Part shown: piece after piece, positions 4,996-56,306 of the stretch
Numbering within the stretch: the stretch's first letter is position 1
How the letters are laid out: the number at the start of each line of letters is the position of its first letter
Source of the DNA: a virus
Lineage: Duplodnaviria; Heunggongvirae; Uroviricota; Caudoviricetes
IMG/VR virus record: IMGVR_UViG_3300024348_000013
Coordinates: 46,677 to 110,676 of that record
Direction: 5' to 3' (one strand)
DNA length: 64,000 nucleotides
Notes under the pieces: generated by a model
What the model was told of the DNA's origin: nothing
Databases searched by the model: none
Seen by the model: only the letters and a program-made list of their open reading frames with translations
Position numbers and translations under genes: made by a program

Positions 4996-6255
4996 CTAAA
5001 AATCTAATTTAACCTTAATTGCCACTTCTTTATCAAATGATTTCTCAATTGGTTTAGAAGTTTTTGCTACTGCTAATAATTCATTAGAATCATCATATAA
5101 TCCTACACTTGTAATATACACATGCGGGTCTCTTTCAAATAATGATTGAACAAACTGACCAGTAGAACCGGTTACGAATGTTGGGTTGTTTGAGAAGTTA
5201 AATTCTCTATTGTTTGCTCTTACAAAATAATGAGATGTTGAAACGTTTTCAGTTCTTCTTACTTGGAAGTCAGCGCCACCTTGTAAAGAACGTAATAACA
5301 TTACTGAGCCAGAGTTTGCACTATATGTAGAACCACTTAAAGAAAGGTTATGATAAACACTTTTTTGTGAATCATATGCTGGTGCTAATTTGGTATCAAC
5401 CGAAGAAGATAATGCTGCTGGGTTTAATAAAATGATTCCCATATCTGGATAGAATAAACCCCATCCTTGTCCATTAGATGCCGTTGCACTATTTACTGAA
5501 GAAGTAGCTGCAGTTCCAATGTTTAATGAACCACTAACTAAATTATAAACTCTTCCTGCGGTTGTAACGTTTTCATCAGTTCCACCACTATCATCGATTA
5601 ACGTAATACTTCTTAATGAACCAGATAAATCAATTGATATATTACCTGGGTCTAATCTTTCTTTGTATCTAGCTCTATTGATATTGATTGCGTAGAATGA
5701 TGTCATATCAGCACCACCTGCCGTTGTACCACTATATATGCTAAAATACGGGTCAGCTGAATCTAATAATACGTTTTTATACTGATTATAAGTTGCTTTT
5801 GTTGGAGAAGTTGAATCATCATTTTGAGCCAATGTTGGTGAACCATATCCGAATGCATCGCCATAAGCAACTGAGAATTGAACCTGAGATGCATCAGATG
5901 ATGTTAATCCATTATAAACATCGATATAGTATTTACCACTTACAGATGTTACTTGTGCAGAAGATGTATATGTTGCGTTTACATCCAATGAACCTGTATC
6001 ACCACTCCATATTCCAGAAGTTACAATTTCAGTTCTATTAGTTACTTTATCAATAGCTCCGAACTTTTTATAAATACCATTTGTGATGGTAGTTATATCC
6101 GAGCTGATTTGTTCACCTTGACCTAAAAATTGGTTTACGATTCTAACTAATTCGTTAGTATCAACGGGAGTTCCTGCGGTGTTCGCTGCACCGGCTAAGT
6201 ATTGTGATAAATTACTTGCTAATAGGCTTCCTCTATTGTCTCTTATTAATGCCAT
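4996..6255 (-). CDS. tail-fibre-like structural protein, paralog B
   Basis: Ser/Thr/Gly-rich. The C-terminus REFNFSNNP...VGLYDDSNELLAVAKTSKPIEKS matches paralog A. Confidence 0.6.
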   Translation of the reverse strand: MALIRDNRGSLLASNLSQYLAGAANTAGTPVDTNELVRIVNQFLGQGEQISSDITTITNGIYKKFGAIDKVTNRTEIVTSGIWSGDTGSLDVNATYTSSAQVTSVSGKYYIDVYNGLTSSDASQVQFSVAYGDAFGYGSPTLAQNDDSTSPTKATYNQYKNVLLDSADPYFSIYSGTTAGGADMTSFYAININRARYKERLDPGNISIDLSGSLRSITLIDDSGGTDENVTTAGRVYNLVSGSLNIGTAATSSVNSATASNGQGWGLFYPDMGIILLNPAALSSSVDTKLAPAYDSQKSVYHNLSLSGSTYSANSGSVMLLRSLQGGADFQVRRTENVSTSHYFVRANNREFNFSNNPTFVTGSTGQFVQSLFERDPHVYITSVGLYDDSNELLAVAKTSKPIEKSFDKEVAIKVKLDF

Positions 6256-21696: not shown

Positions 21697-23406
21697 TTAT
21701 TTACTTATTAAAAACTTCCCCAAAACTAAGTAATTCATATCACAATTATTGAATGTCCAAATTGCTTTTTGTGGGTCATTTGTCATTGTATGGTCTTTTA
21801 AATTGAATGATGTATTCAATAAAATGGGTGTTCCTGTCAATTTTTCAAACTCTTTAAGTAACTCATAGTAAAGTGGGTTATCTTCTTTTTTTAGGGTTTG
21901 TATTCTGGCTGAGTTATCAACGTGTGTTACTGATGGTATATTTACACTATCTTTAACTTGTACTACTTGATTCATATATGGAACATCTTCTTCCGATGCA
22001 AAGTATTTTTGATAATCTTCAATTGTTACCGATGGAGCAAATGGTCTAAACATTTCTCTCTTTTTGACAACCTTATTAATCCTATCTCTTACATCTGGCA
22101 AATGTGGATTAGCTAATATAGAACGATTACCCAATGCTCTTGCACCAAATTCAGTTCTACCTTGAAACCACCCAACTATATTACCTTCGTTGATTAACCT
22201 TGCAACTTCTTTACACAATACTTGCGGTGTTTCATACATTACAATTGCATTACCTCTAACTCTTTTTTGTAATATAATTTTAAGTAATTCAGGGTTAGTC
22301 CATTCCTCACCTAAATATGGAGATTGATTATCTCCACCTTTTACTTTTGGATTACCAAATGTTTGATGATAATGATATAAACATGCACCAATAGCAGAAC
22401 CACTATCGGATGGTGCAAATGGTATCCATACATTTTTAATTGATGTATATTTTTTTATCTTACCATTAGCAGTTCCATTATATGCACATCCACCTCCTAA
22501 TACTAAATTATCACATTCCCAAATATTAATAACTCTATTTATAATAAAATACAACATAGATTCATACCATCGTTGTAATGATGCTGCTAAATCTTTATGA
22601 TGTTGTTCTATTGGTTCATCTTTGAAACGTGGAGGAAAGCCAATCAAATCAATAAGTTTTTGATTAAACATATCCGTTTCCGATGTTTTATATGTAAAGT
22701 ATTTCTGATTTATCTTTATAATATCAATATCATCTCCTATGTGTGCAATTTTGTCAAATATACTATGATATGTTTGACTTTCACCATAAGGTGCTAATCC
22801 CATAACTTTATACTCTCCTTCATTTGGTTTAAATCCTAAATATGCAGTAAATGCTGAATAAACTAATCCTAATGAGTGTGGGAAATGTAGTGTTTGAATT
22901 TTATGAAATCCATTTTCATCACACATTGCAGCGTATATTGTATGAGATTCGCCTACACCATCTACTGATAAACCAATTGCTTTATCAAATGGTGATGTGT
23001 AATACGATAGTGCTAAATGGGAGTGGTGGTGTAATGTATATAAAATTTCACCGGTATACCCAATTGATTCCAATATTCCTTCTAAGTTACCTTCGGTTTC
23101 GTTCCATCTTTTAATAAAACGTCTCCACTTAGGAAAAAATGATTTTAATGGCCAATATTTACTTCCAATGGTTTGTTTAACTCTTTCAAATTTATCTTTT
23201 GGATTTTCATACCAACACACCATATCAACTTCATCAATTGTTATGTTTGCGTATTCTAAACACCATTGGATTGCTTTAAACGGAAAAGAACTATCATGCT
23301 TTTCGCCGGATAGTTTCTCTTCTTCAATTGCACATATTACTTTACCATCTATAACTAATGCTGCTGCTGAATCGTGATAGAAAGCTGATAGTCCTAATTG
23401 TATCAT
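21697..23406 (-). CDS. carbamoyltransferase (NodU/CmcH family)
   Basis: The N-terminus MIQLGLSAFYHDSAAALVIDGKVICAIEEEKLSGEKHDSSFP is the hallmark of NodU/CmcH O-carbamoyltransferases. The 569 aa length is consistent with the Kae1-like plus YrdC-like two-domain architecture. Confidence 0.85.
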   Translation of the reverse strand: MIQLGLSAFYHDSAAALVIDGKVICAIEEEKLSGEKHDSSFPFKAIQWCLEYANITIDEVDMVCWYENPKDKFERVKQTIGSKYWPLKSFFPKWRRFIKRWNETEGNLEGILESIGYTGEILYTLHHHSHLALSYYTSPFDKAIGLSVDGVGESHTIYAAMCDENGFHKIQTLHFPHSLGLVYSAFTAYLGFKPNEGEYKVMGLAPYGESQTYHSIFDKIAHIGDDIDIIKINQKYFTYKTSETDMFNQKLIDLIGFPPRFKDEPIEQHHKDLAASLQRWYESMLYFIINRVINIWECDNLVLGGGCAYNGTANGKIKKYTSIKNVWIPFAPSDSGSAIGACLYHYHQTFGNPKVKGGDNQSPYLGEEWTNPELLKIILQKRVRGNAIVMYETPQVLCKEVARLINEGNIVGWFQGRTEFGARALGNRSILANPHLPDVRDRINKVVKKREMFRPFAPSVTIEDYQKYFASEEDVPYMNQVVQVKDSVNIPSVTHVDNSARIQTLKKEDNPLYYELLKEFEKLTGTPILLNTSFNLKDHTMTNDPQKAIWTFNNCDMNYLVLGKFLISK

Positions 23407-25240: not shown

Positions 25241-25617
25241 TATCCTTTGGTTTTATCATAGGTAATAGAGCCATCCGGTGTCATGTGGCCGGTTCTAATA
25301 GCAGTTCCACTAATTACTGCTACATCAGTTGGTGGTTCGTGATATATTACATCATACCCCACTCCTCTACCATAGTTTACTGATTCAATATCAGGAATAA
25401 TACTAATTAGGATTTTATCTATGTTTTTTTGAAAGAATGGTTCTTCCATTAAATCCATCATTACTTTGAATGCTGATTTGGGGTTGTTCTCATCTTCGGG
25501 TACATCTCTAATTGCTACCCAAACGTTTTTACCTTGAGTTAGTTGTTGGTTTATTAACCATTCGTGTCCTTTGTGCCAATTTTGCCATCTTCCGATGTAC
25601 ATTGCGTATTTTTTCAT
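25240..25617 (-). CDS. nucleotidyltransferase of the NadM/NMNAT-cytidylyltransferase family
   Basis: YIGRWQNWHKGH carries the (H/T)xGH motif of the archaeal-type NMN adenylyltransferase GRFQPFHKGH. The C-terminal ISGTAIRTGHM matches the ISxTxIR motif. Confidence 0.65.
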   Translation of the reverse strand: MKKYAMYIGRWQNWHKGHEWLINQQLTQGKNVWVAIRDVPEDENNPKSAFKVMMDLMEEPFFQKNIDKILISIIPDIESVNYGRGVGYDVIYHEPPTDVAVISGTAIRTGHMTPDGSITYDKTKG

Positions 25618-26495
25618 ATTTCTAATTTTTCTTTTAATTGTGGTATTAAATTTTGGGTAAGTGCATCATGTCCTTTTGGTGAAAAATGGCCATCATTGCA
25701 ATATCCTTCTTCTTTTAATGTTTTTACTTTATTTGGATATTCCCAATTTATATTCCAAAACTCTATTTTTTCTATTAATGTTATTCTTTTTGGAAAGCGT
25801 ACATCAACTTGCTCCCACATTCGGCTTGGATTCATTCCATTGATTCCCGTCATATAATCTTCGGATTTTAAATATGGCCAGATTTCTTTGTATTCATTTA
25901 ATACTGGTCCATTTATAAAATTAAATGGTAAAAATTTAATTCCTTTTGATTCTATAAATCCTTTATATTCATACAAATACATTAAAAATTTTGCAATATA
26001 ATAATCAAAATCAAAATGATTTAAAAAATAATACATTGATATCTCATTATTTTCTTCTAATGTTTGAAAATTATAATTTAAAAAATCAATTCTATTTTTA
26101 TTATCATTTGTAGTATCTAATATTTCAACTCTATTAAAAGCTGGTAACTGATAACAAAATACTGCTTTAGTAAAATCAATAGTATCTTCATTATTAATGA
26201 TGAATGAAGTTACTTTTCTAAATTGAGATTCTATTCCTTTACCAGGAATAGAAAGATTGTATGTATTTTCAAACCCCATTTCTTTTCCAATTTGATTGGG
26301 GTATGCTCTAGCTGCTACATCTCTCATAGCATCTTTAACTGATATTACATTTGGAAAATCTTTATAGCATTTTGGATTACACCATTCAACTGGTTTTGTA
26401 TATAAATCTTCCGTTTCTTCATGATTGTTTTCATCAAACATACCACTACCATATGAATGAGAGCAACCAGACCATATTAAGGTTTTATATTTCAT
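25614..26495 (-). CDS. SGNH/GDSL-like hydrolase, paralog 1
   Basis: N-terminal block I variant WSGCSHSYGSG (Cys in place of the GDS aspartate) and block V DGHFSPKGH. Confidence 0.5.
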   Translation of the reverse strand: MKYKTLIWSGCSHSYGSGMFDENNHEETEDLYTKPVEWCNPKCYKDFPNVISVKDAMRDVAARAYPNQIGKEMGFENTYNLSIPGKGIESQFRKVTSFIINNEDTIDFTKAVFCYQLPAFNRVEILDTTNDNKNRIDFLNYNFQTLEENNEISMYYFLNHFDFDYYIAKFLMYLYEYKGFIESKGIKFLPFNFINGPVLNEYKEIWPYLKSEDYMTGINGMNPSRMWEQVDVRFPKRITLIEKIEFWNINWEYPNKVKTLKEEGYCNDGHFSPKGHDALTQNLIPQLKEKLEI

Positions 26496-29271: not shown

Positions 29272-29919
29272 TTAAATATTATTATCTTGTGATTCTATTA
29301 CCGTACTCATATGGTCGGCCCAATGCATGATGTAAGGAATTTTATATTTCATTCTCTTACTAATATCAAATACTTTTAAATATTTGGCATTATCTTCATC
29401 ATATAATCCATCAGTAAGTTTCATTCCAAAATATTCTGCTTCTGAAACAGTGATGTTATATTGCTGTAATAGAAACATAGTCCTATCAGTATGAGTCATA
29501 TGTGATAAATCTGGATTTGCTGTATATACCTTACCTTGATTCTTAATGTGCCAATCGGATGGGTTTGGCATATAGTATGGATTTCCCTTAGTTCCTAATT
29601 TACCTAAGTCGTGATGTAATGCACAAAATATTAATTCTTCATCGGTAAAGTCTGGCTTGCCACCCATTTGAATAAATAGCTCCTTAACTTTAAGTGCGTT
29701 TTTACATACATTGAAAATATGGTCTATGTAACCACCTGTATAGCAGTTATGATATCCTACGTTTCCACTAGCTGGTGATATTGCAAGATTTACTCCTAAT
29801 TCATTTTCTGAATACATGAATAAGAGTTTCTCTAATCTTTCTCCTGTGAAATACTTGTTAATGATGGCAATGAACTTGTCATAGCTTTGTTTCAATTCTT
29901 GTTCTGTCTTTTGTTTCAT
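29272..29919 (-). CDS. HD-domain phosphohydrolase
   Basis: H...HHDLGK HD motif with a downstream D. Confidence 0.65.
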   Translation of the reverse strand: MKQKTEQELKQSYDKFIAIINKYFTGERLEKLLFMYSENELGVNLAISPASGNVGYHNCYTGGYIDHIFNVCKNALKVKELFIQMGGKPDFTDEELIFCALHHDLGKLGTKGNPYYMPNPSDWHIKNQGKVYTANPDLSHMTHTDRTMFLLQQYNITVSEAEYFGMKLTDGLYDEDNAKYLKVFDISKRMKYKIPYIMHWADHMSTVIESQDNNI

Positions 29920-29997
29920 TCTTTTAGATTTTAATTGTTTTATTTATTTTATATTCTTTTTTAGTGCTGTCAAGTATAATACTATAAAAAGATACCT

Positions 29998-30029
29998 CAA
30001 ATATACAACAAATTTTTTAATTTTCCAAA
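29998..30029 (-). promoter_or_regulatory. Bacteroidetes-type promoter upstream of HD hydrolase gene
   Basis: Minus strand: TTTGGAAAATTAAAAAATTTGTTGTATATTTG. Confidence 0.5.
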
Positions 30030-30040
30030 TATTTGAGCGT

Positions 30041-30361
30041 TTATTTTAAAAATAATTCTTTTTTAGTCAAAATCTTATATAAAATCTCCACTTCTTCTTC
30101 CGTAGTAAGTTCAGGCAAATCTTCTTCAAATAAACGCATAGTGTATATGGATTTGCCAGTATCATCGGTAAATTCATCGGATGCAGAACTAAAAATAGTT
30201 GGCATATATTCTAATTGTTGAATTTCATCTTCATTCAAATCAACTAACGGAATAACAAAATAATGGTAATTTCCTTCAATTTCATCGGTAGCATCAATCT
30301 TGTGACACTTCCATTTATTAAAACTGGCTTCGGTAATTGGGGTTTCGGGTACTATAATCAT
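30041..30361 (-). CDS. hypothetical acidic protein
   Basis: 106-aa ORF between promoter-bearing spacers. Confidence 0.4.
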   Translation of the reverse strand: MIIVPETPITEASFNKWKCHKIDATDEIEGNYHYFVIPLVDLNEDEIQQLEYMPTIFSSASDEFTDDTGKSIYTMRLFEEDLPELTTEEEVEILYKILTKKELFLK

Positions 30362-30408
30362 AGTAACAAATATAGTAAAAATTTGTTACATTACCAAACT
30401 AAATCCAT

Positions 30409-31155
30409 TTATTTATATAAATAATTGTATATTTTTTTAGCGTATTGCTTATTGGTATTCGGTCCTGGGTGAAAACCATCTATGCCGTAATCTATGAATG
30501 GGTAATAATCTCCATCAAATCTATTATCATCATTGTAATCATTAGTTGCATACCAACCATTCCAAAGCCAATTACATTTTTTTGATTCTAAAAAATATTT
30601 AATCAACATATGATTTTTATACCAATTAATAAAATTATTTGATTTATTTAATAGAGTAAGATGTGCATTATGTTCATTTATACCAATCATATCTTCTTTA
30701 AAATATCCCCAACTTTTGTGATGAAATGGTTCTATACCACCTTCATTTGTATAAAACTCTCGTCTATGTGATTCGGTATACATAATTAAAACCAAATCAG
30801 GTTTTATTATATCGTAATATGCCATTAAACAACGGGTGATATAATCATTACTTCTACCACCACATCCGAAATTTAAATCAACTCCATTTGGTATTAATTT
30901 ACAGAATTCATGTGGCCACGTTTCGTTATCATTTACACCAACTCCCTCAGTAATAGAACAACCAATTGACATTACTTTAAATCCTTTTTTATTTATACTA
31001 TCTCCTCTAAATCCTAATTCATTATATGTGTAAGTACATTCACCTGTTTTATCTGAACCAGACCCATTATATTTTTGATTAACTCTTTCACTTAAATTGT
31101 TTCTAAACGATGAAATTTCAAACCCATCAGGATTCCAATATTTTAAACTATCCAT
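30409..31155 (-). CDS. SGNH/GDSL-like hydrolase, paralog 2
   Basis: SIGCSITEGVG block I variant and GIDGFHPGPN block V. Confidence 0.5.
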   Translation of the reverse strand: MDSLKYWNPDGFEISSFRNNLSERVNQKYNGSGSDKTGECTYTYNELGFRGDSINKKGFKVMSIGCSITEGVGVNDNETWPHEFCKLIPNGVDLNFGCGGRSNDYITRCLMAYYDIIKPDLVLIMYTESHRREFYTNEGGIEPFHHKSWGYFKEDMIGINEHNAHLTLLNKSNNFINWYKNHMLIKYFLESKKCNWLWNGWYATNDYNDDNRFDGDYYPFIDYGIDGFHPGPNTNKQYAKKIYNYLYK

Positions 31156-31656
31156 TTAAATAATTGATTTTGAATTAAATTTAATATTTGTATTTTTTAA
31201 AAACCATATTAATGAATAGCGATTACCTTTTGTAATTTTTGTTACTTCGTGCTTTATACTTACGGGAAATATATAGGAATTACCGGCGGATTTATCTAAT
31301 GTAATATTTTTGTCAGTTGGATATAATAAAAAATCCCCACCATCAAAATTATCATTTAATAAAACTCCTACGGAAAACACCCTAGAATCCATATTATCAT
31401 CGTGAATGCCAAAATAATCATTTGGCTCGTATATGTGGAAATGTAATTCCGGTCGTATCTCTATTATAGATATGCCTGTTTTTATTTCAAAAAAGTTTTT
31501 TAATTTTTCGAATATCCAATTAGTATCCGTATCTTTTAATATTAATAAAGATTTATAGTTTCTATCATCCGAATTCCAATATCGGTTGTCTGTTTTTATT
31601 AAATCAATAATAGTATTACATTCATCTATTGTAAATATGCTTTGTTGGTAAATCAT
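31156..31656 (-). CDS. 2OG-Fe(II) oxygenase (prolyl-4-hydroxylase-like)
   Basis: HFHIYEPNDYFGIHDD (HxD), a distal H in SIKHEV and RYS; this is the double-stranded beta-helix facial triad pattern. Confidence 0.7.
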   Translation of the reverse strand: MIYQQSIFTIDECNTIIDLIKTDNRYWNSDDRNYKSLLILKDTDTNWIFEKLKNFFEIKTGISIIEIRPELHFHIYEPNDYFGIHDDNMDSRVFSVGVLLNDNFDGGDFLLYPTDKNITLDKSAGNSYIFPVSIKHEVTKITKGNRYSLIWFLKNTNIKFNSKSII

Positions 31657-32246
31657 ATTACTGAATTTATCTTTACTCTATATTTTTTTGAATTATCTAA
31701 AAATTTATTATAATAGATTTCATTATAATTAGAACCTATTGCTTTTAAAAATTCTAACATATTTTCTTTTGTTGAGTAAATATCTTCGTAATAAAACACT
31801 TTAGTATTTTTATCTTTAGCTAATGTGTGGAATTGTTCTTTCCAAAATAACATATGTTTTAATTCTTCATCTATAAATTTATTATGTTTTTTATCACTAT
31901 AAACATATGAAGTATGCCAGGTATTGGTTGTTAAAGAATGTGAAAGACTTTCCAATTGCTCTTTTATATTTTTTCTATCTAAAAAAACAATTTTATCAAA
32001 TGATTTATAATAAATTTCATTTATTTCATTAATAGATATATTTTTTAAGTCAGGCGGTAATTGGTCGTATATGTGTTTTACAAATACATTTTCATATTGA
32101 ATTATATGATTGTATGTAAAATATCCTTCTCTACCATTTTTATTAAATGGTTCACTAAATGTTTTGATATCTGGGTTTGAGTATTTATAATACTCTATTA
32201 TAGAAGTTGAGCCAGTTCTTGGAAAACATATCAACAATATTTTCAT
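31653..32246 (-). CDS. sulfotransferase
   Basis: 5-prime PAPS loop ICFPRTGSTS (PKSGTT-type) and a 3-prime PB-like FLDRKNIKEQLESLSHS (RxxxxxxS). Confidence 0.6.
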   Translation of the reverse strand: MKILLICFPRTGSTSIIEYYKYSNPDIKTFSEPFNKNGREGYFTYNHIIQYENVFVKHIYDQLPPDLKNISINEINEIYYKSFDKIVFLDRKNIKEQLESLSHSLTTNTWHTSYVYSDKKHNKFIDEELKHMLFWKEQFHTLAKDKNTKVFYYEDIYSTKENMLEFLKAIGSNYNEIYYNKFLDNSKKYRVKINSVI

Positions 32247-32249
32247 AAA

Positions 32250-32885
32250 CTATATGAGATTGGAAGAATCGGATTTTGCATTGAATAGTACATTGCCAGC
32301 TAATACAATTCTATCATTTGTTGAATTTGGATTCACTTCAGGTCTATGCCATAATGTTCCACCAAATATGTATAAATACCCAGCTTCAGGCATTATCATA
32401 ATAGAATCGGTTTGTTCATCATCCCCTCTTTCATTTAAAAAAATAAGCTTTCCTTCATTTCCTTCACAATTGTTTGGAACATCTACATAATATGTCCAAG
32501 TAAACGATGTAGTTAATGTTGGTAGTTCATAACTAAATTTAGAATGTTGATGATATTGGGAATCTGGATTAGATGCGGTGGATATAAAAATCCAACTATT
32601 TTGATACCCACTAATTACTTCTTTATTAGATATAGAAGTATATACGTCTTTTACTATATTATAGCATTTATCTTTTATTTCAAATATACTTTTACTATTT
32701 GAAAGGTTTGTACTAAATTGTATACCAGGCGAACCCATTTCTTTTGGGTTAAATGGTATATCGCCAACCAAAAATTTTCTATCAATATCTATATCTTCTA
32801 ATAACTTAGAAGTATCAATTCCATCGATTTTTATTTTATAAATTTTATGATGTTTAAAATTTATAATTTCATAACTGTTTAACAT
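32250..32885 (-). CDS. 2OG-Fe(II) oxygenase, Oxy_5-like (marine phage family)
   Basis: YHQHS...GKLIFLNERGDD...AGYLYIFGGTLWHRPEVNPNSTNDRIVLAGNVLF matches the PF13759-type pattern (H.H...G.L.F.DPR...H.V.PN...RISI.FN). Confidence 0.6.
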   Translation of the reverse strand: MLNSYEIINFKHHKIYKIKIDGIDTSKLLEDIDIDRKFLVGDIPFNPKEMGSPGIQFSTNLSNSKSIFEIKDKCYNIVKDVYTSISNKEVISGYQNSWIFISTASNPDSQYHQHSKFSYELPTLTTSFTWTYYVDVPNNCEGNEGKLIFLNERGDDEQTDSIMIMPEAGYLYIFGGTLWHRPEVNPNSTNDRIVLAGNVLFNAKSDSSNLI

Positions 32886-33061
32886 ATGGAATTTTTTTAA
32901 CTTAGGTGTTTAGCTTTTATAGCAGATATAATAGATACTACTTTTGCTAATAGTGTAGTTTTATCGGTTTCGTTTGATACTTTCTTTACAAAAGCCGTTT
33001 TTTCAGCCATTGCATATTTTTTATTTTTATTTACTTCGCTCATAATATTTTTTATTTTTTT

Positions 33062-34711
33062 TTAATTTTTTGCACCTCCACCACAAATTTGCGCGTCACA
33101 ACAGTATGGACATGTAGAGTAGTAACTATAAGTACCGCACTGAAATGACCCTTCAGCACAACATACGCCACTACTATAAGCATAACCGTTATAGGAGTAC
33201 CCATTACATGGTGAACCACAATACCAATATGAATAGTTACAACAATTATTCTGACACTGCTGCGCTGGGTTATGTTGTATCAACGCATATATAGGAGAAA
33301 TAGATTGTTCTTCCATTGTAAGATACAAATCCGATTCTTCTACATCCAATTTATAAATAGTTTCTTTATTGTAACTGTATTGTATGGAACTTATCGTTTT
33401 TATTTCTAATTCATTTGTTGTTGTATTTACTACAATTATATTATCATTTACACCCAATCCTCTAAAATTTATGAATCTAAACAATTCACTTGGGTCGGTA
33501 GATACCTTAGCAATAACAGTTGAACTATCTACATCGGAAAATATAGTACCATCATTTAATGTTATTTCCTTTAACCAAAATGTAACTCCTTCAAATGATT
33601 CTATATTAGTTACATTTGTATTTATTATTGAGCTTCCAATTGTTACATCATCAACAGATGCACTATATAATGGCATTTCATTATCACTCCATCCTAAATT
33701 GTTTAATTGTACAGACTTCAGAGTATCACCCAATACTATATCATTTATATTTTTGAGAAAGCCATCTCCATCTAAAATTTTTGAATCGGCATCTACTTTA
33801 TAATTTTTAAATTTATTCGTATTAAGTCTATCCACTACTTTTTGTAGATAGATAGGTCTTTCCCAATATTGTAATTCGTTATTACTATCAAAATCTGCAG
33901 CTGCAGATAATATAGTACTATTTGTATGTACATATGGTGAAAATAAATTCATTACCTCCAAATTAGAACCATATATCATATCAACACTCCTATAAGTTTG
34001 AAGTTTGTTATTATACAAATCATTCTCATTTATTATATACTCTTGTAAAAGTGTATTAAATGGTAACGAACTTTTTAAATTAGAAAGCTCTTCGGCTGTA
34101 TTTATTTTATATATTTTTGGATATTGTTCATAATTAGTTGTTGGATATCTTTCTTTAACAATAAAATTAGGATACTCCCCATTATCTCTAATAACTTCAC
34201 CTATACTATCAATTCCCAATGTATCATTTACAAAATACGTCTTTGGTATAGAATTTACATCCGCATCATACATTAATTTTAAAAATTCAAAATTATCTTT
34301 AGCGTAAGTATCATCAATTAATGCGGTTGAATCATATGCATTTCTAAGAATTAATTTATTAGATGCATCTTCTATAAATGGAATCGTTGTTGCTGTAGCT
34401 TCTACATTATGTATTGTAAGTGAAACCGTAGAACTGCCAGAATAATATTCACTCAATATGGTATTAAATGCTTTAGGAACACTGGATTCAGCCATTTCTA
34501 CATCGATGACGGTATCATTCAATCCCATTGATTGATTTATAAATTCTATAACTTCAATACCATTTGATACCACAAACTGATTAAATGCTTCAATATCAAA
34601 ATAATTATTAATATCCCCAACAACATTTCCTACATTTGTATTTAATTCCAATATTTTAAAGCTACCATCTGTATCTTTTAGTAAATCCGTTGCTACTATT
34701 ACTGCCTTCAT
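33062..34711 (-). CDS. large hypothetical protein with extreme Cys/Tyr/Ser/Gly-rich C-terminal tail
   Basis: 549 aa. The last roughly 65 residues contain 16 Cys (CQNNCCNYSYWYCGSPCNGYSYNGYAYSSGVCCAEGSFQCGTYSYYSTCPYCCDAQICGGG). Confidence 0.5.
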   Translation of the reverse strand: MKAVIVATDLLKDTDGSFKILELNTNVGNVVGDINNYFDIEAFNQFVVSNGIEVIEFINQSMGLNDTVIDVEMAESSVPKAFNTILSEYYSGSSTVSLTIHNVEATATTIPFIEDASNKLILRNAYDSTALIDDTYAKDNFEFLKLMYDADVNSIPKTYFVNDTLGIDSIGEVIRDNGEYPNFIVKERYPTTNYEQYPKIYKINTAEELSNLKSSLPFNTLLQEYIINENDLYNNKLQTYRSVDMIYGSNLEVMNLFSPYVHTNSTILSAAADFDSNNELQYWERPIYLQKVVDRLNTNKFKNYKVDADSKILDGDGFLKNINDIVLGDTLKSVQLNNLGWSDNEMPLYSASVDDVTIGSSIINTNVTNIESFEGVTFWLKEITLNDGTIFSDVDSSTVIAKVSTDPSELFRFINFRGLGVNDNIIVVNTTTNELEIKTISSIQYSYNKETIYKLDVEESDLYLTMEEQSISPIYALIQHNPAQQCQNNCCNYSYWYCGSPCNGYSYNGYAYSSGVCCAEGSFQCGTYSYYSTCPYCCDAQICGGGAKN

Positions 34712-34749
34712 ATACGTTCTTTATTGTTTCCTATAAATATAAACTTTTA

Positions 34750-35019
34750 TTAAATAATTGATTTTTGAGTTTTACTTTTAAAATAATCTTTTTCTACTTC
34801 CAACCATTTATTTAAAGGACAAGCATCATTTTCCATTGTGAATATCTTTTTACTAAGTGGACACCCACATTGAGTACAAACTACAATATTAAGCGTAGTT
34901 CCTTTTTTATCACACGAATCGCATATATCCATTCGTTTTTCAGCCAACTCCGCTTGTATTGGGGTTGGGTTAGCTGCAGTAATCCAAGCTTTTGCTATTT
35001 TTTTAAGATTAATTCCCAT
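34750..35019 (-). CDS. zinc-ribbon protein (CxxC...CxxCxC...C)
   Basis: DICDSCDKK...CTQCGCPLSKK...DACPL. Confidence 0.5.
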   Translation of the reverse strand: MGINLKKIAKAWITAANPTPIQAELAEKRMDICDSCDKKGTTLNIVVCTQCGCPLSKKIFTMENDACPLNKWLEVEKDYFKSKTQKSII

Positions 35020-35024
35020 ATTAA

Positions 35025-35327
35025 CTATAATTTATTATATATTTTTTGAATTCTTGCACACTCTTCATAAATCTCTAATCCACTTAACCTAACTAATAAC
35101 CAATCCGCCATACGTTTGAATTCACTTCTGTGTATAGTTATATAGACTGGCAGTTTTTTGTATTTAATCAGAATTATTTCTTTACATTTTTTATTAGATT
35201 TCCAATTATCTAATTTATCAACTAACTCTGATAAATTTTCTGGCGTTAGATGGACACGATTTAAGTGTTCATCCCAATCTAATGAAATCCATCCACTTTC
35301 TAACTTCTTTAAAACACTTATATCCAT
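35025..35327 (-). CDS. hypothetical protein
   Basis: 100-aa ORF, translationally coupled in the cluster. Confidence 0.4.
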   Translation of the reverse strand: MDISVLKKLESGWISLDWDEHLNRVHLTPENLSELVDKLDNWKSNKKCKEIILIKYKKLPVYITIHRSEFKRMADWLLVRLSGLEIYEECARIQKIYNKL

Positions 35328-35375
35328 ATATAATTACAAATGTACAAATAATTATCCAATTTACCAAATGTTACA

Positions 35376-36086
35376 CTATAAACTTTTATTCATAGTTCTA
35401 ATTAATTCCATAAATCCTAGCTGATATTTTTTAAAAGAATATATGTGAATATATGAATTAATAGTGTTCATTGGGAGTGAATTCCATCCTTTGTTATCCG
35501 ATATTAGTTTTAATAAGGCTTGCTCCAACGTCAAATACGCATATTTTATCTCAACCCCACCATAGTTCTTATAATAAAAGTTTTTAATCGAATAAAAAGA
35601 ATCTACATATTTTTTCATTTTCAATGGGTCTTTAAATCCTATTATACCGGTATTATATGCTCCATTCCATTTAGAATTCCATTCTGGTAATATATCACCC
35701 ACTCCCCAATTCGATAACGCATTAATTGAATCTATATATCCTATTTCAGAAGTATCCGCAAAATCATATAACACATCATATTCTTTTGGAAATACCAATG
35801 GTTCTGCTATAAAGATATCACCATCCATATGAATAAACTCACCCGTTTCATTTTTAAATACTTCAAACTTTGGCTCATCCCACAAATATGGTATAGTATC
35901 CTTTTTTAAAAATTTAACTTCATCAACTAAATGACCTAATTCATTAGCTCCTCTTTCATCTGTATATAATGTAATTGGATGAAATCTTCTAGCCATCTTA
36001 ATTGAGCATTGATAAATATCCAATATTTTTTGTATATAGGTTTCATCATTAATTCGTGTTGTTGATAACGATTGAATTATTTTCAT
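35376..36086 (-). CDS. hypothetical protein, possible nucleotide-sugar transferase fold (DxD-like HMDGD)
   Basis: 236 aa. IHMDGDIFI acidic motif. Its leader contains an extreme G/C-rich tract. Confidence 0.4.
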   Translation of the reverse strand: MKIIQSLSTTRINDETYIQKILDIYQCSIKMARRFHPITLYTDERGANELGHLVDEVKFLKKDTIPYLWDEPKFEVFKNETGEFIHMDGDIFIAEPLVFPKEYDVLYDFADTSEIGYIDSINALSNWGVGDILPEWNSKWNGAYNTGIIGFKDPLKMKKYVDSFYSIKNFYYKNYGGVEIKYAYLTLEQALLKLISDNKGWNSLPMNTINSYIHIYSFKKYQLGFMELIRTMNKSL

Positions 36087-36099
36087 AACTTAAATTTTA

Positions 36100-36118
36100 G
36101 GGGGAGGGGGTTGGGGGG
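36100..36118. other. G-rich tract GGGGGAGGGGGTTGGGGGG (C-rich in the mRNA sense) in leader of gene 35376..36086
   Basis: A unique GC-pure 19-mer in a roughly 30% GC genome. Confidence 0.6.
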
Positions 36119-36141
36119 ACGAGTCGTTTTTAAAGAAATTT

Positions 36142-36732
36142 TTATATCTCTATTGATAGTTGCATTAATTTTGGAACTCCGCTTTGACACTTTTGATAAT
36201 AATGTAAATCTTTCATAGCATATTTCATTAATACATCCCATTCTTCTCTATACTTACTCTCAACTATTTCATAAACTTCTTCTTTACTTTTCCATTTTTC
36301 ATTGTAATGGCCAAAGTTATAATCATCAACATAAAATGGTTGGTGGTATCCTTTAGTATCCATTGTATAACTTAAACGAGAAAGTTCAACGAATTCAAAC
36401 GAATACCCACTTTGACACCAATATTCGTATATCCTATAATACAATTCCCTATCATACTTATCACCACTATTTTGTTCAATTAAACTATTTAAAGCCAGTT
36501 TCATTTCAATTGGATTATCGATATGAGGCAAACATTCGGTATGTAACGCAATTTGTAAATGTTCAATCGGATTTCGAATAACAAACCATTCCAACTCCAT
36601 AAAAGGATTATCTATCTCATAACTTAACTCATTGATATTACTATGTACAATATCCATATTTAATTTAGCAAGATATCTACTTCCACAATTTAGAGGAGCA
36701 GCCAACCATTTATCATATACTTCTATCACCAT
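36142..36732 (-). CDS. hypothetical protein, paralog of next gene (P-loop-like AAPLNCGSRYL)
   Basis: N-terminus MVIEVYDKWLAAPLNCGSRYL versus MDISIYHKKWIVPAKCGSRYL; shared HxxL...NP(I/L)xHLxxALHT core. Possible sulfotransferase-like PAPS loop (PKCG-type). Confidence 0.45.
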   Translation of the reverse strand: MVIEVYDKWLAAPLNCGSRYLAKLNMDIVHSNINELSYEIDNPFMELEWFVIRNPIEHLQIALHTECLPHIDNPIEMKLALNSLIEQNSGDKYDRELYYRIYEYWCQSGYSFEFVELSRLSYTMDTKGYHQPFYVDDYNFGHYNEKWKSKEEVYEIVESKYREEWDVLMKYAMKDLHYYQKCQSGVPKLMQLSIEI

Positions 36733-36740
36733 AGTATTAA

Positions 36741-37439
36741 TTATATTAATTTCCTTTTTCTTTTCTTAATTTTTGGTAACCCAACGTTTTCGGTAATCCT
36801 ATTCGCCCATTTAACATCTAACTCATATCGCTCCCATATACGTTTCCATATTGAAGGATATTCCGTTTTGACCCAATTAATTATTTCACCGCGGGATGGT
36901 TCGCCGGCCTTCTCAAAGTTATATTCGGATGGAACGTATTCCAACTCAAATCCAGATTCGTTTAGGAGTTCGGTTAAACCTTCAATTGGAACAACCTTAA
37001 TATCAGGTCGCTTTTGTAATAGCATATATAAATTGTAATACAAATGTGGAGACCAATGGCCAGTTCCATCTTTAGTATACTTCAATAGTATTTCTTCCAA
37101 ATGTAGATTTCCTTTAACAAGTCCAATAGCACGAGTGGGTTCATCTAAATGCCCCCACAAATCCGTATGTAATGCCGAAAGTAGGTGTGATAGTGGATTT
37201 CTTAATACTATATGCGTTATAGGTAATACCCAAAATTGAAATATGTTATGGGATTGAGCGGCTATCTTTGTATGGGGAGAATTCAATATAGTATTACGCC
37301 ATATATCCATTTGCTTTGCGGTACTTATACCACTAAACCCAACGTTATCTTGTTCGGTAACTCCAAATGCTTTATCCAAATATCTACTACCACATTTGGC
37401 AGGAACAATCCATTTTTTATGGTATATACTTATATCCAC
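36741..37439 (-). CDS. hypothetical protein, paralog of 36142..36732
   Basis: See the paralog; 232 aa. Confidence 0.45.
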   Translation of the reverse strand: MDISIYHKKWIVPAKCGSRYLDKAFGVTEQDNVGFSGISTAKQMDIWRNTILNSPHTKIAAQSHNIFQFWVLPITHIVLRNPLSHLLSALHTDLWGHLDEPTRAIGLVKGNLHLEEILLKYTKDGTGHWSPHLYYNLYMLLQKRPDIKVVPIEGLTELLNESGFELEYVPSEYNFEKAGEPSRGEIINWVKTEYPSIWKRIWERYELDVKWANRITENVGLPKIKKRKRKLI

Positions 37440-51021: not shown

Positions 51022-51693
51022 CTAATAACTATTAATCCTATTAGTTAAATAAGTTGCTAAATATTGATGCCCAGTATTATTTAAATGGTTATCGTTAAAT
51101 TTTTCAATGGGCCCTAAATCGGTAATTCTTAATTTTTTTTCTACCATTTTTTGGTACAAAGAGTATGTATCTTCAAATTGAATAAAATTATTTCTATTGT
51201 AAAAACTTTTTGAAAATAAATTCATATCGAAATCATATCCAAATGAAATAAATGGTATATTCCTATAATGTAACCAGTTTGATATAAAATCTACTTGCTT
51301 TTCAAATTCTAATACTGATGTTTTACGTGAATAAAAATATTTTAACCATTGTCTATAAAATTCAACAATAGGTTTATCATCTATATCATTTTCATTTACT
51401 TCAGTTCTGCACATTGATATAAATCTATCTTCATTCATATCACTATACATCCCTAATCTATTAAAAAATGTATATTGTATTACATATATGGAATGATTAT
51501 TTAAATCTTTTTTAGATGCAAGATATACATCATTTATAATGTGTTGATTTGACTTGCCGGTAACGGCGTGGGAAATGTGCGGTATTCCCGTATTTTTTGT
51601 AATTAAATTCCTATGAGACTCAAATTCGTGCCCAGTTAGACTTGTTTCCACTTCGGTAAATGAGCACCCAAAAAACTGTAACTTATTTATCAT
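51022..51693 (-). CDS. SGNH/GDSL-like hydrolase, paralog 3
   Basis: FFGCSFTEVETS block I variant and DNHLNNTGH block V. Confidence 0.5.
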   Translation of the reverse strand: MINKLQFFGCSFTEVETSLTGHEFESHRNLITKNTGIPHISHAVTGKSNQHIINDVYLASKKDLNNHSIYVIQYTFFNRLGMYSDMNEDRFISMCRTEVNENDIDDKPIVEFYRQWLKYFYSRKTSVLEFEKQVDFISNWLHYRNIPFISFGYDFDMNLFSKSFYNRNNFIQFEDTYSLYQKMVEKKLRITDLGPIEKFNDNHLNNTGHQYLATYLTNRINSY

Positions 51694-53097: not shown

Positions 53098-53901
53098 TTA
53101 GTATTGATAAAAGTTTTCATTATATTCAATATCAAACAATTCAATATAGTTTGCTGTTAAATATTTTTCCGGAATATCCTTAGTTAAAGAATATTGTACT
53201 AACATATTTATTTCATTATCGGAAAATGTATAAGTATTTCTATAAGTTTGTGCAATATCATTGGGTGAATAAAATCCACTCCTATGCCAACCAAATGATT
53301 CAGTTGTATTATCAAACCCTTCAAATGAAGCAAATTTACGAGCAATAGTATCATCCGGCCATTTTATTTTAAATGGTGTATTTTTATCAGCCATCCATTC
53401 ATTATCAAAAAATGATGAATAAAACCCATCTTCAGCTCCACTACCAAATGTATCAGTACATTCTGACATCTTTAGCATCATTTCAGTATTTCTTAACGAA
53501 AATCCTCCATTATGTACTGAATGCCCACCACCAATATATGGATAATTAAAGAATTCATTATTCCAAGAACCAAAAAATAATGGAAATCCATCCCATTGTA
53601 CAATTAAATACCAATCAGTTTTAATTAAAAATGGTAATCGTTTTATTAAAAAATTTGAATACCAAGATATTCCCTGACCTTCTTTGTTATCCCAATCAAA
53701 TGGCCATAGAGTATCAAATCTCTCATCTAATATATGTTTATTTTTATTGAATGGGTTTATAGATAAAATATCCCCAAAATTAATTCCATTTAATAAGAAT
53801 GGAAATAAACGAGACATTGCTGCTAATCTAATATTATTTTTAGATGTATAATCCCGAGCCGAGTCGATTGTAACTAACGTAACATTTTCTAAATTAATCA
53901 T
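53098..53901 (-). CDS. hypothetical protein (267 aa, Trp/Phe-rich)
   Basis: ORF, ATGA-coupled to the upstream gene. Confidence 0.45.
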   Translation of the reverse strand: MINLENVTLVTIDSARDYTSKNNIRLAAMSRLFPFLLNGINFGDILSINPFNKNKHILDERFDTLWPFDWDNKEGQGISWYSNFLIKRLPFLIKTDWYLIVQWDGFPLFFGSWNNEFFNYPYIGGGHSVHNGGFSLRNTEMMLKMSECTDTFGSGAEDGFYSSFFDNEWMADKNTPFKIKWPDDTIARKFASFEGFDNTTESFGWHRSGFYSPNDIAQTYRNTYTFSDNEINMLVQYSLTKDIPEKYLTANYIELFDIEYNENFYQY

Positions 53902-54369: not shown

Positions 54370-54900
54370 TTATTTAAGTTTCTTTTTATATTTTTCAGCA
54401 GCTTTCTTTAAGGCTTCATTGGGTTCAACCCCTTCAAACAAATCATCATCTTCCGGTGTATCACCCCATTCAAAACTACTATCGGTTACTATTCTTGCAC
54501 CATAATCATCAAATTCAGCTTCATCTTCATCGGTTGCTCTATAATGTAATCCTTCGTTTCCGTTTTGTCCTATAACATCCATTCTTTCGTTTGCCTGATT
54601 TTCATCCCATTTCACTTTGTTATGAAATACTACATCCGCTAATTCATCCGTTTGCCATTCAGTTAATTGTTCTTTCAAATCTTCGGCATCGGTTTCTCTA
54701 TATTCATCTGCTCTATCTACTATCCAATTTTTCCAAGCTGATTGATGATATCCTAATCCAACACAAATAGTTTGAAATGCTTCAAACAATTCATCGATAT
54801 CAGTATCACTATGGTCTATTTCAACTGAAACCTTTGTACCATATTGTTGTGCAGTAATAATTGTTGGTTTTATAAAATCTGCTATTCCGTTATTTTTCAT
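54370..54900 (-). CDS. acidic hypothetical protein
   Basis: Asp/Glu-rich. The start is trimmed to the internal Met to give an ATGA junction with the upstream gene. Confidence 0.4.
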   Translation of the reverse strand: MKNNGIADFIKPTIITAQQYGTKVSVEIDHSDTDIDELFEAFQTICVGLGYHQSAWKNWIVDRADEYRETDAEDLKEQLTEWQTDELADVVFHNKVKWDENQANERMDVIGQNGNEGLHYRATDEDEAEFDDYGARIVTDSSFEWGDTPEDDDLFEGVEPNEALKKAAEKYKKKLK

Positions 54901-56306
54901 ATAAGTTCTGTTGTTTGTGTTAAATTTCTTAATATTTTTGCACAATCGTTAATAAATAATTTATCTTTTGAATAATTTAAAAACAAGTTCTGATTATGAT
55001 GTAGTATATCTATTACATTTTTAGAAAACGTATCTTTCTCTTCTTTTGTTTTATTACTAAACTTTTCAACTTCATCTAATATCATTTTTAAACGAGTAAA
55101 GTCATCATTTTCTAAATCATAACTCTCATCTATAAACGGATGAAATGTTTGAAATCCTAATCCTTTTAAATATTCTAATGATTTTGCTGGACCCATTAAA
55201 ATAAATGGATGCGAATGTCCAATTGGTTTCCAAATCTTTTCACTCAAGTAGCCAGCTGGAAATTCTACATAAACATCTTCTTCCTCTCGTCTTTGAAAAA
55301 AGATAGATTCTGAAACCAAACTTATATATGAATCCAAATACATATCTTTATTTTCAAATCCATATCCTGCAATTTTAGTTAAATCTTCTATGTCTAATAC
55401 TTTGGATTCATTTTTAATTAAATTAGCAAATTCAATATTATCATCGTGTTCCAAAAATGCATCAACTACATTTTGATGGTATAACCTATTATCCCAAGAT
55501 ACTAAATTATTATCTAATCCTAATCTATGCAATTTACTCATTGCCATCAATCTATGTAATTTCCAATGTCTACATAAAAATAGAAAATCTTTTTTATCTT
55601 TACCTATACTACCAACAAATTCTGCATGAGTTGCTATTGAACTACGTTTTTTTTCTATCTTACCAATTTGTGGTTCATGACTGTTGTCACCCCAATACGA
55701 AAAATTTGGATTATTTATTGTATTATTGAATTCTTGTGATTTTGAAACATATGCAAGATTGAAATCAAATACATTATAATTGACTCCCATCTTTTCAAGG
55801 TTTCTTTTTAATTTAAAGTCCTGAAATATTAAAAATACTTTCTCATCGGGTATTTCATTTTCCCGCGTAAAATTAATAATCTTTTGAAAGTTTGGTTTAG
55901 TCATACCTAACCCACCATCAATGATATAGTTAATTAATAAATTACCATTACCTGTCTTAATTTCATTCAGAGCTACCTTTGACATATTCTTTAATGCTAA
56001 TTCATTATAGAATGGATGGTTACCAAAAAATGATTCAATAGAGCCAAATGGTTCTACTATATAATACCATGGCCTGATTTCTTTGTTATTTATAATTTCA
56101 TAAATTGATTTCTTATCAACATATTGATTCCAAAAATTACTATTGTAAATATGCCAATCATTATTCCAACGTTTTTGATATCCCTCTCCACACATTGAGA
56201 AATCAAAATCAGATGCATTATGAATGGTATTTAAAAATTTTGGATGTAGACAATTTGGCATTTCGCCATTATAAGTCATTATATCATATCCGAACAATAT
56301 TTTCAT
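54897..56306 (-). CDS. hypothetical protein (469 aa)
   Basis: Long ORF with no recognisable motif. Confidence 0.5.
   Translation of the reverse strand: MKILFGYDIMTYNGEMPNCLHPKFLNTIHNASDFDFSMCGEGYQKRWNNDWHIYNSNFWNQYVDKKSIYEIINNKEIRPWYYIVEPFGSIESFFGNHPFYNELALKNMSKVALNEIKTGNGNLLINYIIDGGLGMTKPNFQKIINFTRENEIPDEKVFLIFQDFKLKRNLEKMGVNYNVFDFNLAYVSKSQEFNNTINNPNFSYWGDNSHEPQIGKIEKKRSSIATHAEFVGSIGKDKKDFLFLCRHWKLHRLMAMSKLHRLGLDNNLVSWDNRLYHQNVVDAFLEHDDNIEFANLIKNESKVLDIEDLTKIAGYGFENKDMYLDSYISLVSESIFFQRREEEDVYVEFPAGYLSEKIWKPIGHSHPFILMGPAKSLEYLKGLGFQTFHPFIDESYDLENDDFTRLKMILDEVEKFSNKTKEEKDTFSKNVIDILHHNQNLFLNYSKDKLFINDCAKILRNLTQTTELI

Follow-up and report, generated by a model that had tools for sequence, protein, structure and literature searches.

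A phage ATP-grasp-like and Hint fusion protein as a candidate precursor of a cysteine-rich peptide, encoded beside a changing set of putative tailoring enzymes

A 64-kb stretch of DNA from an uncultivated marine phage (positions 46,677 to 110,676 of IMG/VR record IMGVR_UViG_3300024348_000013; hereafter the window) carries between its positions 29272 and 37439 a dense group of enzyme genes, which raises the question of what these enzymes act on and whether they act on anything in common. The region is packed with 13 minus-strand open reading frames (ORFs) whose intergenic gaps range from -4 to 121 nt, and a sequence-only reading had proposed that it encodes a pathway for hydroxylation, sulfation and (de)acylation. 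What that reading overlooked is that the 549-aa protein encoded in this region is probably a fusion of an ATP-grasp-like domain with a Hint (hedgehog/intein) domain, the cysteine-rich tail of which is likely cleaved off by the protein itself. At a probability of roughly 0.4, we propose that the locus encodes a self-excising Cys-rich peptide precursor accompanied by facultative tailoring enzymes.

The 549-aa protein is encoded on the minus strand and displays three parts. Residues 1-300 (33812..34711) constitute a putative ATP-grasp-like domain of the circularly permuted, GspS/YgiC-like ligase kind, residues 301-481 (33269..33811) a Hint domain that ends in H480-N481 and is devoid of both the N-terminal nucleophile and TxxH, and residues 482-549 (33065..33268) a hypervariable tail, which contains 12 Cys, 11 Tyr and 8 Ser and is the putative released peptide. 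The protein belongs to a family that numbers 399 or more clusters at 50% identity, as counted in a library of representative proteins with E up to 0.001, whose members lie almost all on viral contigs and are confined to uncultivated viruses. Neither the protein nor its profile matches anything in PDB, Pfam, NCBIfam or PHROGs, save for the Peptidase_S74 domain (S74) of long relatives, and tblastn against 50,697 GenBank phage records retrieved no homolog. Among 185,579 prokaryotic species genomes there were two matches, on contigs of 3.7 kb and 5 kb (loci L014 and L015) that are probably viral DNA binned wrongly. The bins concerned are a Pelagibacterales and a Methanobacteriota metagenome-assembled genome.

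Within the putative ligase domain, E22-x-N24, K186 and R241 are kept in 237-239 of 240 family members. Catalytic roles for these residues were placed by eye and with the help of a non-significant hhalign segment: the comparison of the family with Escherichia coli YgiC gave an E of 0.35, which is not significant, and its single segment puts D9...K19..E22-x-N24 on YgiC residues 101-124. Residues 128-171 (34199-34330), which contain DSTALIDDTYAKDNFEFLKLMYD, are among the best-conserved stretches of the family, with A130, L131, D133, Y136, D139, N140, F143-L146 and D149 invariant, yet they are modelled at a predicted local distance difference test score (pLDDT) below 50 and may form a mobile lid or an interface.

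Residues 301-481 adopt the Hint beta-fold. The family's own Hint was aligned to the canonical Hints that occur as extra domains in distant relatives, and this alignment revealed that Cys1 is missing, the corresponding position being an unconserved V, H, K, N or S, and that TxxH is replaced by S-D-V-D. The His-Asn of block G is retained, with H480 in 215 and N481 in 227 of the 240 members, the remainder being mostly alignment artefacts. Asn481 is essentially universal among members that possess a tail; eight members are almost tailless and two of these (P0283 and P0289) have lost the His-Asn. Since Cys1 or Ser1, TxxH and a +1 nucleophile are all lacking, splicing and N-terminal thioester chemistry are ruled out, and the degenerate Hint would, judging from its residues, be capable of C-terminal Asn cyclisation at most. 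The same three absences set it apart from inteins, bacterial intein-like (BIL) domains and hedgehog Hog domains. An intein reading of the domain was dropped on these grounds, the +1 position being Pro here and variable elsewhere, and the first Cys after N481 comes at +5. In some distant members (noted among P0306, P0320, P0342, P0352 and P0238) the degenerate Hint is followed by one to three additional canonical Hint/BIL domains, with Cys1, TxxH and HN; the linkers between these tandem Hints count just 0-5 residues (...HN|CF.AGT), so that there are almost no exteins.

The 12 Cys of the protein all lie at residues 486-543, with none elsewhere, which corrects an earlier count of 16 in the tail. 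The tail diverges faster than the remainder of the protein, being 57-66% identical where the enzyme part is 80-89% identical. Among 149 plain tails the number of Cys is even in 143 (6, 8, 10 or 12), odd in two and zero in four, which points to fully paired cysteines; a Lys is found among the last three residues in 114 of the 149. Approximately 30 members end in the Peptidase_S74 self-cleaving chaperone, an endosialidase-type intramolecular chaperone that is absent from the window's own protein and that follows, in these relatives, a Cys-rich segment instead of a trimeric beta-helix. Its cleavage motif S-D-x-x-L-K-x-N-I starts right behind C-x3-K, and therefore the mature C-terminus would equal that of the short forms. 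In four members a 27-29-aa peptide with six Cys is placed between the degenerate Hint-1 and a canonical, Cys1-bearing Hint-2, and in other members the tail is replaced by tandem Hints or by a large unrelated domain. Self-cleaving modules hence occur around the Cys segment in three independent architectures (Hint alone, Hint with S74, and Hint-1 with Hint-2). That different lineages flank this segment with modules whose scissile bonds face it is our main argument for proposing that the tail is released. Genes for B12-binding radical SAM enzymes were also seen near Cys-tail genes of the long, S74-encoding form in two related loci (L009, 8205-9941, 578 aa; L013, 5782-7581, 599 aa), located either immediately upstream or about 2.4 kb upstream.

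Two small minus-strand genes accompany the gene of the 549-aa protein. The first encodes an 89-aa zinc-ribbon protein (34750..35019; phrog_13558 at 3e-11, DUF6171 sub-threshold), an obligate partner of the Cys-tail protein that had already been recognised as a zinc ribbon and whose six Cys (C33, C36, C48, C51, C53 and C67) are indeed invariant in eight divergent homologs. The second, directly downstream of the Cys-tail gene and absent from the gene list of the sequence-only reading, encodes a 48-aa basic protein (32897..33043) in which the motifs E-x-NKN and K-x-KH are invariant across nine homologs. We then rely on 50 loci found via the 549-aa protein (28-100% identity, not dereplicated), referred to as the core-seeded set. 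The zinc-ribbon gene adjoins the Cys-tail gene in 50/50 of these loci, and the 48-aa gene was detected in 43/50. The zinc-ribbon, 549-aa and 48-aa genes are a conserved three-gene core.

We propose a scheme in two layers. In the first, which consists of the three-gene core, the 549-aa protein would be a self-processing precursor. Its N-terminal domain would act as a carboxylate-amine ligase of the ATP-grasp type, circularly permuted like GspS and YgiC, while the Hint, deprived of the thioester machinery, would cyclise Asn481 and cut the N481-P482 bond. The 68-residue tail freed in this way would fold with about six disulfides and end in the conserved C-x(2-5)-K, the released piece would be a variable cargo, as for the pretoxin-Hint (PT-HINT) domains of polymorphic toxins, and the ATP-grasp domain may ligate something to, or through, the peptide. 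The second layer would be a changeable tailoring island that separates the core from the HD/Hsp20 backbone genes and that holds, in this phage, a sulfotransferase of the type using 3'-phosphoadenosine 5'-phosphosulfate (PAPS), two 2-oxoglutarate (2OG)-Fe(II) hydroxylases, an SGNH esterase or acyltransferase, a DUF6734 protein and a pair of paralogs, and these enzymes would decorate the freed peptide or a glycan attached to it.

The PT-HINT domains of bacterial polymorphic toxins were reportedly described by Zhang, Aravind and colleagues in 2012. As in that system, the Hint stands right upstream of a hypervariable C-terminal cargo whose presumed release is autoproteolytic, and a small gene lies directly downstream. 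In contrast, an ATP-grasp-like enzyme takes the place of the N-terminal secretion or trafficking domain and the protein is phage-encoded; most cargos are Cys-rich peptides of 25-85 aa and not toxin enzyme domains; the Hint has neither Cys1 nor TxxH and does not match PT-HINT in Pfam; and the 48-aa downstream gene is conserved instead of co-varying with the cargo. When compared to systems for ribosomally made peptides with post-translational modifications (RiPPs), the locus differs in that the precursor would be a 549-aa enzyme fusion in place of a short chain with leader and core, and that the modifying enzymes are tied to it by gene neighbourhood only. The 549-aa protein has no significant sequence similarity to the circularly permuted ATP-grasp amidoligases GspS/YgiC/YjfC, to eukaryotic glutathione synthetase or to Cp1B of E-64 biosynthesis (PMC12568646), and it also differs from ATP-grasp amidoligases by the fusion of the domain to a Hint and a Cys-rich tail.

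Among the enzymes next to the core, the 197-aa protein (31653..32246, minus strand) had been read as a PAPS-type sulfotransferase from its PRTGST loop, and both its fold and its two PAPS-binding motifs uphold this. An AlphaFold2 model built from a 30-sequence alignment reached a pLDDT of 89.1 and a predicted template modelling score (pTM) of 0.86. In a Foldseek search of this model against PDB, ranks 1-19 were all sulfotransferases (Stf0, several SULTs and TPST2), with Stf0 1tex on top (E 1.8e-5, TMq 0.60) and nucleotide kinases only lower. All of 30 homologs keep R10 and G12 of the 5'-phosphosulfate-binding (5'-PSB) loop P9-R10-T11-G12-S13-T14, and at least 90% keep S13/T14; R91 and S100 of the 3'-phosphate-binding (3'-PB) motif are invariant in the family, as are P33, D84 and Y153-E154-D155. 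The profile of the protein gave weak matches in PDB, to the sulfotransferases NodH and CurM only, and the NodH alignment spans the R91...S100 motif. On its own, the protein has no database match and falls below the cut-off of every Pfam and NCBIfam sulfotransferase model, 4/25 homologs match Stf0, Sulfotransfer_1 or Sulfotransfer_3 at E 0.002-0.015, and tblastn found no homolog in the GenBank phage records searched above. With Stf0, NodH, CurM-type sulfotransferases and tyrosylprotein sulfotransferase it shares the P-loop-like fold and the 5'-PSB and 3'-PB motifs, and it differs from them by its length of just 197 aa and its sub-threshold scores with all these models. That the protein is a genuine sulfotransferase, by its modelled fold and PAPS motifs, is well supported.

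The sulfate donor may be supplied in related loci by adenosine 5'-phosphosulfate (APS)-kinase-like proteins (PF01583) of 143-146 aa, whose genes lie 0.8-1.8 kb upstream of the core in L008 (8738-9169), L011 (8352-8783) and L012 (8584-9024). Five loci of the core-seeded set carry such a gene and all five are sulfotransferase-positive (hypergeometric p ~0.003, uncorrected for relatedness). The window itself contains no APS kinase and no ORF with a Walker-A motif.

The two 2OG-Fe(II) oxygenases of the sequence-only reading, one P4H-like and one Oxy_5-like, were recovered, both on the minus strand. The first is a 166-aa P4H/PKHD-like protein (2OG-FeII_Oxy_3; 31156..31656) that matches PF13640 at 3.8e-10, with 41 bits for a cut-off of 27, as well as phrog_61 at 2.4e-17, and that has an H85-D-D87 motif. 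The second, probably an Oxy_5/TIGR02466-like protein of 211 aa (32250..32885), matches phrog_81 '2OG-Fe(II) oxygenase' at 1.7e-14 and reaches PF13759 at 6e-4 only below threshold (20.6 bits for 27). A minus-strand gene at 30409..31155 encodes a 248-aa SGNH/GDSL hydrolase with GCS in block I. As a single sequence it has a sub-threshold Pfam match, while its profile matches in PDB the GDSL protein 4rsh at 6.8e-6 and, over the full length, rhamnogalacturonan acetylesterase 1deo at 1.7e-5; all of 18 homologs share S67, N103 and H229, and at least 90% keep G100, which accounts for the four signature residues of blocks I, II, III and V. Of the three SGNH paralogs claimed earlier, this one is a true SGNH protein and the other two, located outside the region at 25614-26495 (293 aa) and 51022-51693 (223 aa), are motif-only, with GCS...D-x-x-H but no Pfam match. 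Their paralogy was dropped, BLASTP similarity among the GCS proteins being nil. The sulfotransferase, SGNH and 2OG proteins suggested by the motifs are not spurious.

In order to follow the linkage of these genes, we counted them across loci. Within 50 core-seeded loci, the sulfotransferase is present in 17, the P4H-like 2OG oxygenase in 26 (with up to six copies each), the Oxy_5-like one in 13, the SGNH-like protein in 27, the paralog pair's family, here called PAR, in 14 and the APS-kinase-like protein in the five mentioned. The enzyme genes are positioned between the core and the HD/Hsp20 genes, the set varies almost lineage by lineage, and the same families recur beside Cys-tail homologs that share just 28-45% identity across phage contigs. 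Reciprocally, 79 loci were found by the sulfotransferase alone, 27 of which have full flanks. The Cys-tail protein is present in 52/79 of these, and in 22/27 full-flank loci it lies within 10 kb. P4H-like oxygenases are found in 65 of the 79 loci, APS-kinase-like proteins in 20, HD in 23, Hsp20 in 22 and the carbamoyltransferase in 21; the sulfotransferase is found with the Cys-tail gene more often than with the HD or Hsp20 backbone genes. The recurrence of the enzymes, their reciprocal linkage and the APS-kinase pattern make it plausible that the cluster has some shared logic, sulfation included. The pathway proposed earlier is partly supported, in that its sulfotransferase, 2OG and SGNH families are real and recurrent, although they do not form a fixed gene set across lineages.

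A part of this picture has a precedent. Tandem dioxygenase arrays in cyanophages were described by Iyer et al. (2010), together with bacterial clusters in which 2OG oxygenases, sulfotransferases and PAPS synthetases occur alongside protein substrates of the tail-collar type or peptide substrates (PMC2938197), and the idea of peptide hydroxylation and sulfation is thus not new. As in those clusters, several unrelated 2OG oxygenases stand in tandem in marine phages, and peptide hydroxylation, sulfation and PAPS supply are predicted. In contrast, they were reported without the ATP-grasp-Hint-Cys-tail protein or this sulfotransferase family, and the arrays seen here are anchored to the three-gene core. 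Apart from that study, a literature search of incomplete coverage returned nothing relevant on phage sulfotransferases, on the DUF names or on an ATP-grasp-Hint(-Cys-tail) fusion.

Several observations weigh against a self-excising, tailored peptide. The +1 residue is Pro, not Cys, Ser or Thr, the penultimate His is a Ser in some members, and cleavage is a prediction. The 549-aa protein has no signal peptide, and the cytoplasm does not favour disulfide formation; the tail is modelled at pLDDT below 50, so the model says nothing of its fold. The contents of Tyr, Ser and Thr in the tail do not differ between sulfotransferase-positive and sulfotransferase-negative loci, with just four negative loci to compare, and the idea of Tyr sulfation was dropped when tail composition gave no signal in that comparison. 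Stf0 and NodH, the nearest relatives of the sulfotransferase, and rhamnogalacturonan acetylesterase, the nearest one of the SGNH protein, all act on sugars, and related islands hold glycan genes, among them GT7-LamG, UDP-glucose dehydrogenase, epimerases and carbamoyltransferase. Synteny across related phages holds insofar as the same families recur near the core, but in nine loci with a different genomic background (L036-L044) the core is present and none of the enzymes lies within 10 kb; as these nine loci hold the core alone, the tailoring enzymes are dispensable for it. Besides, a gene order inherited within one broad lineage of phages, and not function, may account for the linkage. Because of these points, two other explanations stay live.

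The stronger of them, which we consider possible though doubtful, is that the region is a glycan-tailoring island, whose sulfotransferase, SGNH, 2OG and DUF6734 proteins decorate, together with the nearby carbamoyltransferase, a polysaccharide or a glycoconjugate, for instance glycans of the host envelope or of the virion, while the Cys-tail protein is a mere neighbour or amidates a sugar acid. It would account for the trehalose sulfotransferase Stf0 as the best structural match of the sulfotransferase, for profile matches in PDB confined to NodH, which acts on lipopolysaccharide, and CurM, and for the full-length alignment of the SGNH profile with rhamnogalacturonan acetylesterase. It also fits the genes that related loci carry beside the core, which encode glycosyltransferase (GT) 7-LamG fusions, UDP-glucose dehydrogenase, a GT4-methyltransferase, epimerases/dehydratases and a NolO-like carbamoyltransferase, the last of which is encoded in the window itself at 21697-23406. 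However, genes for glycosyltransferases or sugar nucleotides were not recognised at 29-37.5 kb of the window, P4H-like 2OG enzymes typically hydroxylate peptides (PMC2938197), and the sulfotransferase is linked to the Cys-tail gene in 52/79 loci compared with 21/79 for the carbamoyltransferase. The conserved three-gene core would moreover be left unexplained.

Less probable again, and in our judgement unlikely, is that the region is an unrelated accessory mosaic where a T4-like marine phage is hypervariable, in which case the genes would have no common substrate and the cluster would be an artefact of dense packing on one strand. The co-oriented and tight 8-kb layout that the sequence-only reading had emphasised is real, but the entire window is tightly packed and, since essentially every one of its long ORFs sits on the minus strand, the co-orientation of the cluster is uninformative. 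The GC content, which is about 30% in this AT-rich window, has its minimum over the island (26-28% across 30000-36000, when compared to 30-35% in the flanks), the island content changes in nearly every lineage with the core also occurring without it, arrays of unrelated dioxygenases are known from cyanophage (PMC2938197), and promoter-like and terminator-like sites are no more frequent in the window than in shuffled sequence. On the other hand, it is the same five to six enzyme families, not random genes, that recur by the core over deep divergence, the APS kinase is restricted to sulfotransferase-positive loci in the core-seeded set, and PAR and SGNH occur fused in one protein.

A role of the 549-aa protein as a fibre or adhesin of the virion, with a disulfide-rich tip that binds the host receptor, a merely structural Hint and enzymes that modify virion proteins, is improbable: it would agree with the S74 chaperone of 30 members, which is typical of tail fibres and spikes, with the hypervariable C-termini that receptor-binding tips typically have and with the giant fibre-like genes 0.7-2.2 kb downstream in L008, L010 and L012, but the protein has no PHROG tail-fibre or structural match and no Pfam repeat or fibre family, the catalytic-type residues of its N-terminal domain are near-invariant as in an enzyme, its gene lies among accessory genes some 15 kb from the baseplate genes of the window, and variants with tandem canonical Hints or 25-aa tails are at odds with a fibre.

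The proposal of a self-excising peptide can be extended, in a form that we hold rather unlikely as a whole, to a new class of ribosomal peptide in marine jumbo phages. The disulfide-rich tail of 25-85 aa would be part of its own ATP-grasp ligase, would be excised by the Hint (in some members also by S74 or a second Hint), and would then undergo sulfation, hydroxylation and (de)acylation by a fast-changing set of phage enzymes with a phage-encoded PAPS supply. The hypervariable peptide would have its role in conflicts of phages with their hosts or with other phages, for instance as a toxin, an inhibitor, an exclusion factor or an adhesion factor. If the reading as a self-excising peptide holds, phages would provide disulfide-rich peptides that excise themselves and are tailored by enzymes, and the design would unite three known elements, Hint-mediated release of a variable cargo, ATP-grasp ligation and peptide sulfation or hydroxylation, a combination that we have not found described. 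For the dioxygenase arrays of marine phages this would provide an initial clue to function, and a phage sulfation pathway with its own APS kinase would be the first of its kind. On a conservative reading, a large family without a Pfam, PHROGs or NCBIfam model still gains a description at the level of the fold. A Hint apparently limited to C-terminal cleavage and a compact sulfotransferase of 197 aa are, besides, possible tools.

The remaining genes of the region are all on the minus strand as well. The PAR pair comprises a 232-aa protein (36741..37439) and a 196-aa one (36142..36732), whose paralogy, claimed earlier, is supported by BLASTP (3e-11) while the PKCG-like loop noted with it fits no family. 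In the PAR family P13, G17, R19, R80 and P82 are invariant; phmmer and profile searches against PDB, Pfam, NCBIfam and PHROGs assigned the pair to no family, and hhalign against the sulfotransferase family gave E 0.36, the link being limited to the motifs P-x-K-C-G-S-R and R-N-P...S-A-L. A 462-aa protein of L013 (8616-10004) joins the PAR family to an SGNH-like/DUF6071 domain, and this fusion hints that both families act together. The 236-aa protein encoded at 35376..36086, previously taken for a DxD-like putative transferase, belongs instead to DUF6734 (PF20508 at 8.3e-9, above cut-off) and has a DGD motif; the PDB search returned noise only for it and no homolog was detected in the 50 related loci. 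Two further proteins have no Pfam or PHROG family, namely a 100-aa protein (35025..35327) that some lineages keep upstream of the zinc ribbon, and an acidic protein of 106 aa (30041..30361) found in a subset of loci.

The last gene, at 29272..29919, encodes a putative 215-aa HD-type phosphohydrolase. This earlier assignment is probable, as the protein matches phrog_28876 'metal-dependent phosphohydrolase' at 9.1e-10 and has HHD at 102-104, although Pfam HD stays sub-threshold (0.17). The gene is 67-83% identical beside Hsp20 in L007 and L009 and is found in most related loci. Because it accompanies Hsp20 in most of them, it is likely part of the phage backbone and bounds the island; we judged its membership of the pathway unlikely in view of this co-occurrence.

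Concerning the genome context, nearly all long ORFs of the window are on the minus strand. The window is phage DNA and encodes, besides a NolO-like carbamoyltransferase, UvdE and Hsp20, a baseplate wedge protein (phrog_219). A matching contig (L004) adds a peptide deformylase and a Kyano_Gp96 gene, viral contigs of the relatives reach 318 kb, and this genome segment turns up repeatedly, in many metagenomes. No near-identical DNA was found among the 50,697 GenBank phages, the closest cultured relatives by the baseplate protein, about 40% identical, being Microcystis phage Mel-JY01 and Flavobacterium phage immuto. Scanning the window for Rfam families and tRNAs gave no matches. The carbamoyltransferase is a 569-aa NolO/NodU-like protein (21697-23406; phrog_1601 at 2.5e-119), and in related phages its gene directly adjoins the zinc-ribbon and Cys-tail genes, inside glycan-gene clusters. 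Adjacent proteins of 408 aa (3700-4926) and 419 aa (4996-6255) are weak paralogs over their C-terminal parts (BLASTP 4e-6) and form the sole paralog pair of the window besides the one at 36142-37439. Finally, we identified a DUF5672 protein at 53098-53901, a GP88-family protein at 62100-62963, a DnaG-type primase at 2049-2990 and, at 54897-56306, a 469-aa protein with a sub-threshold Tox-HDC match.

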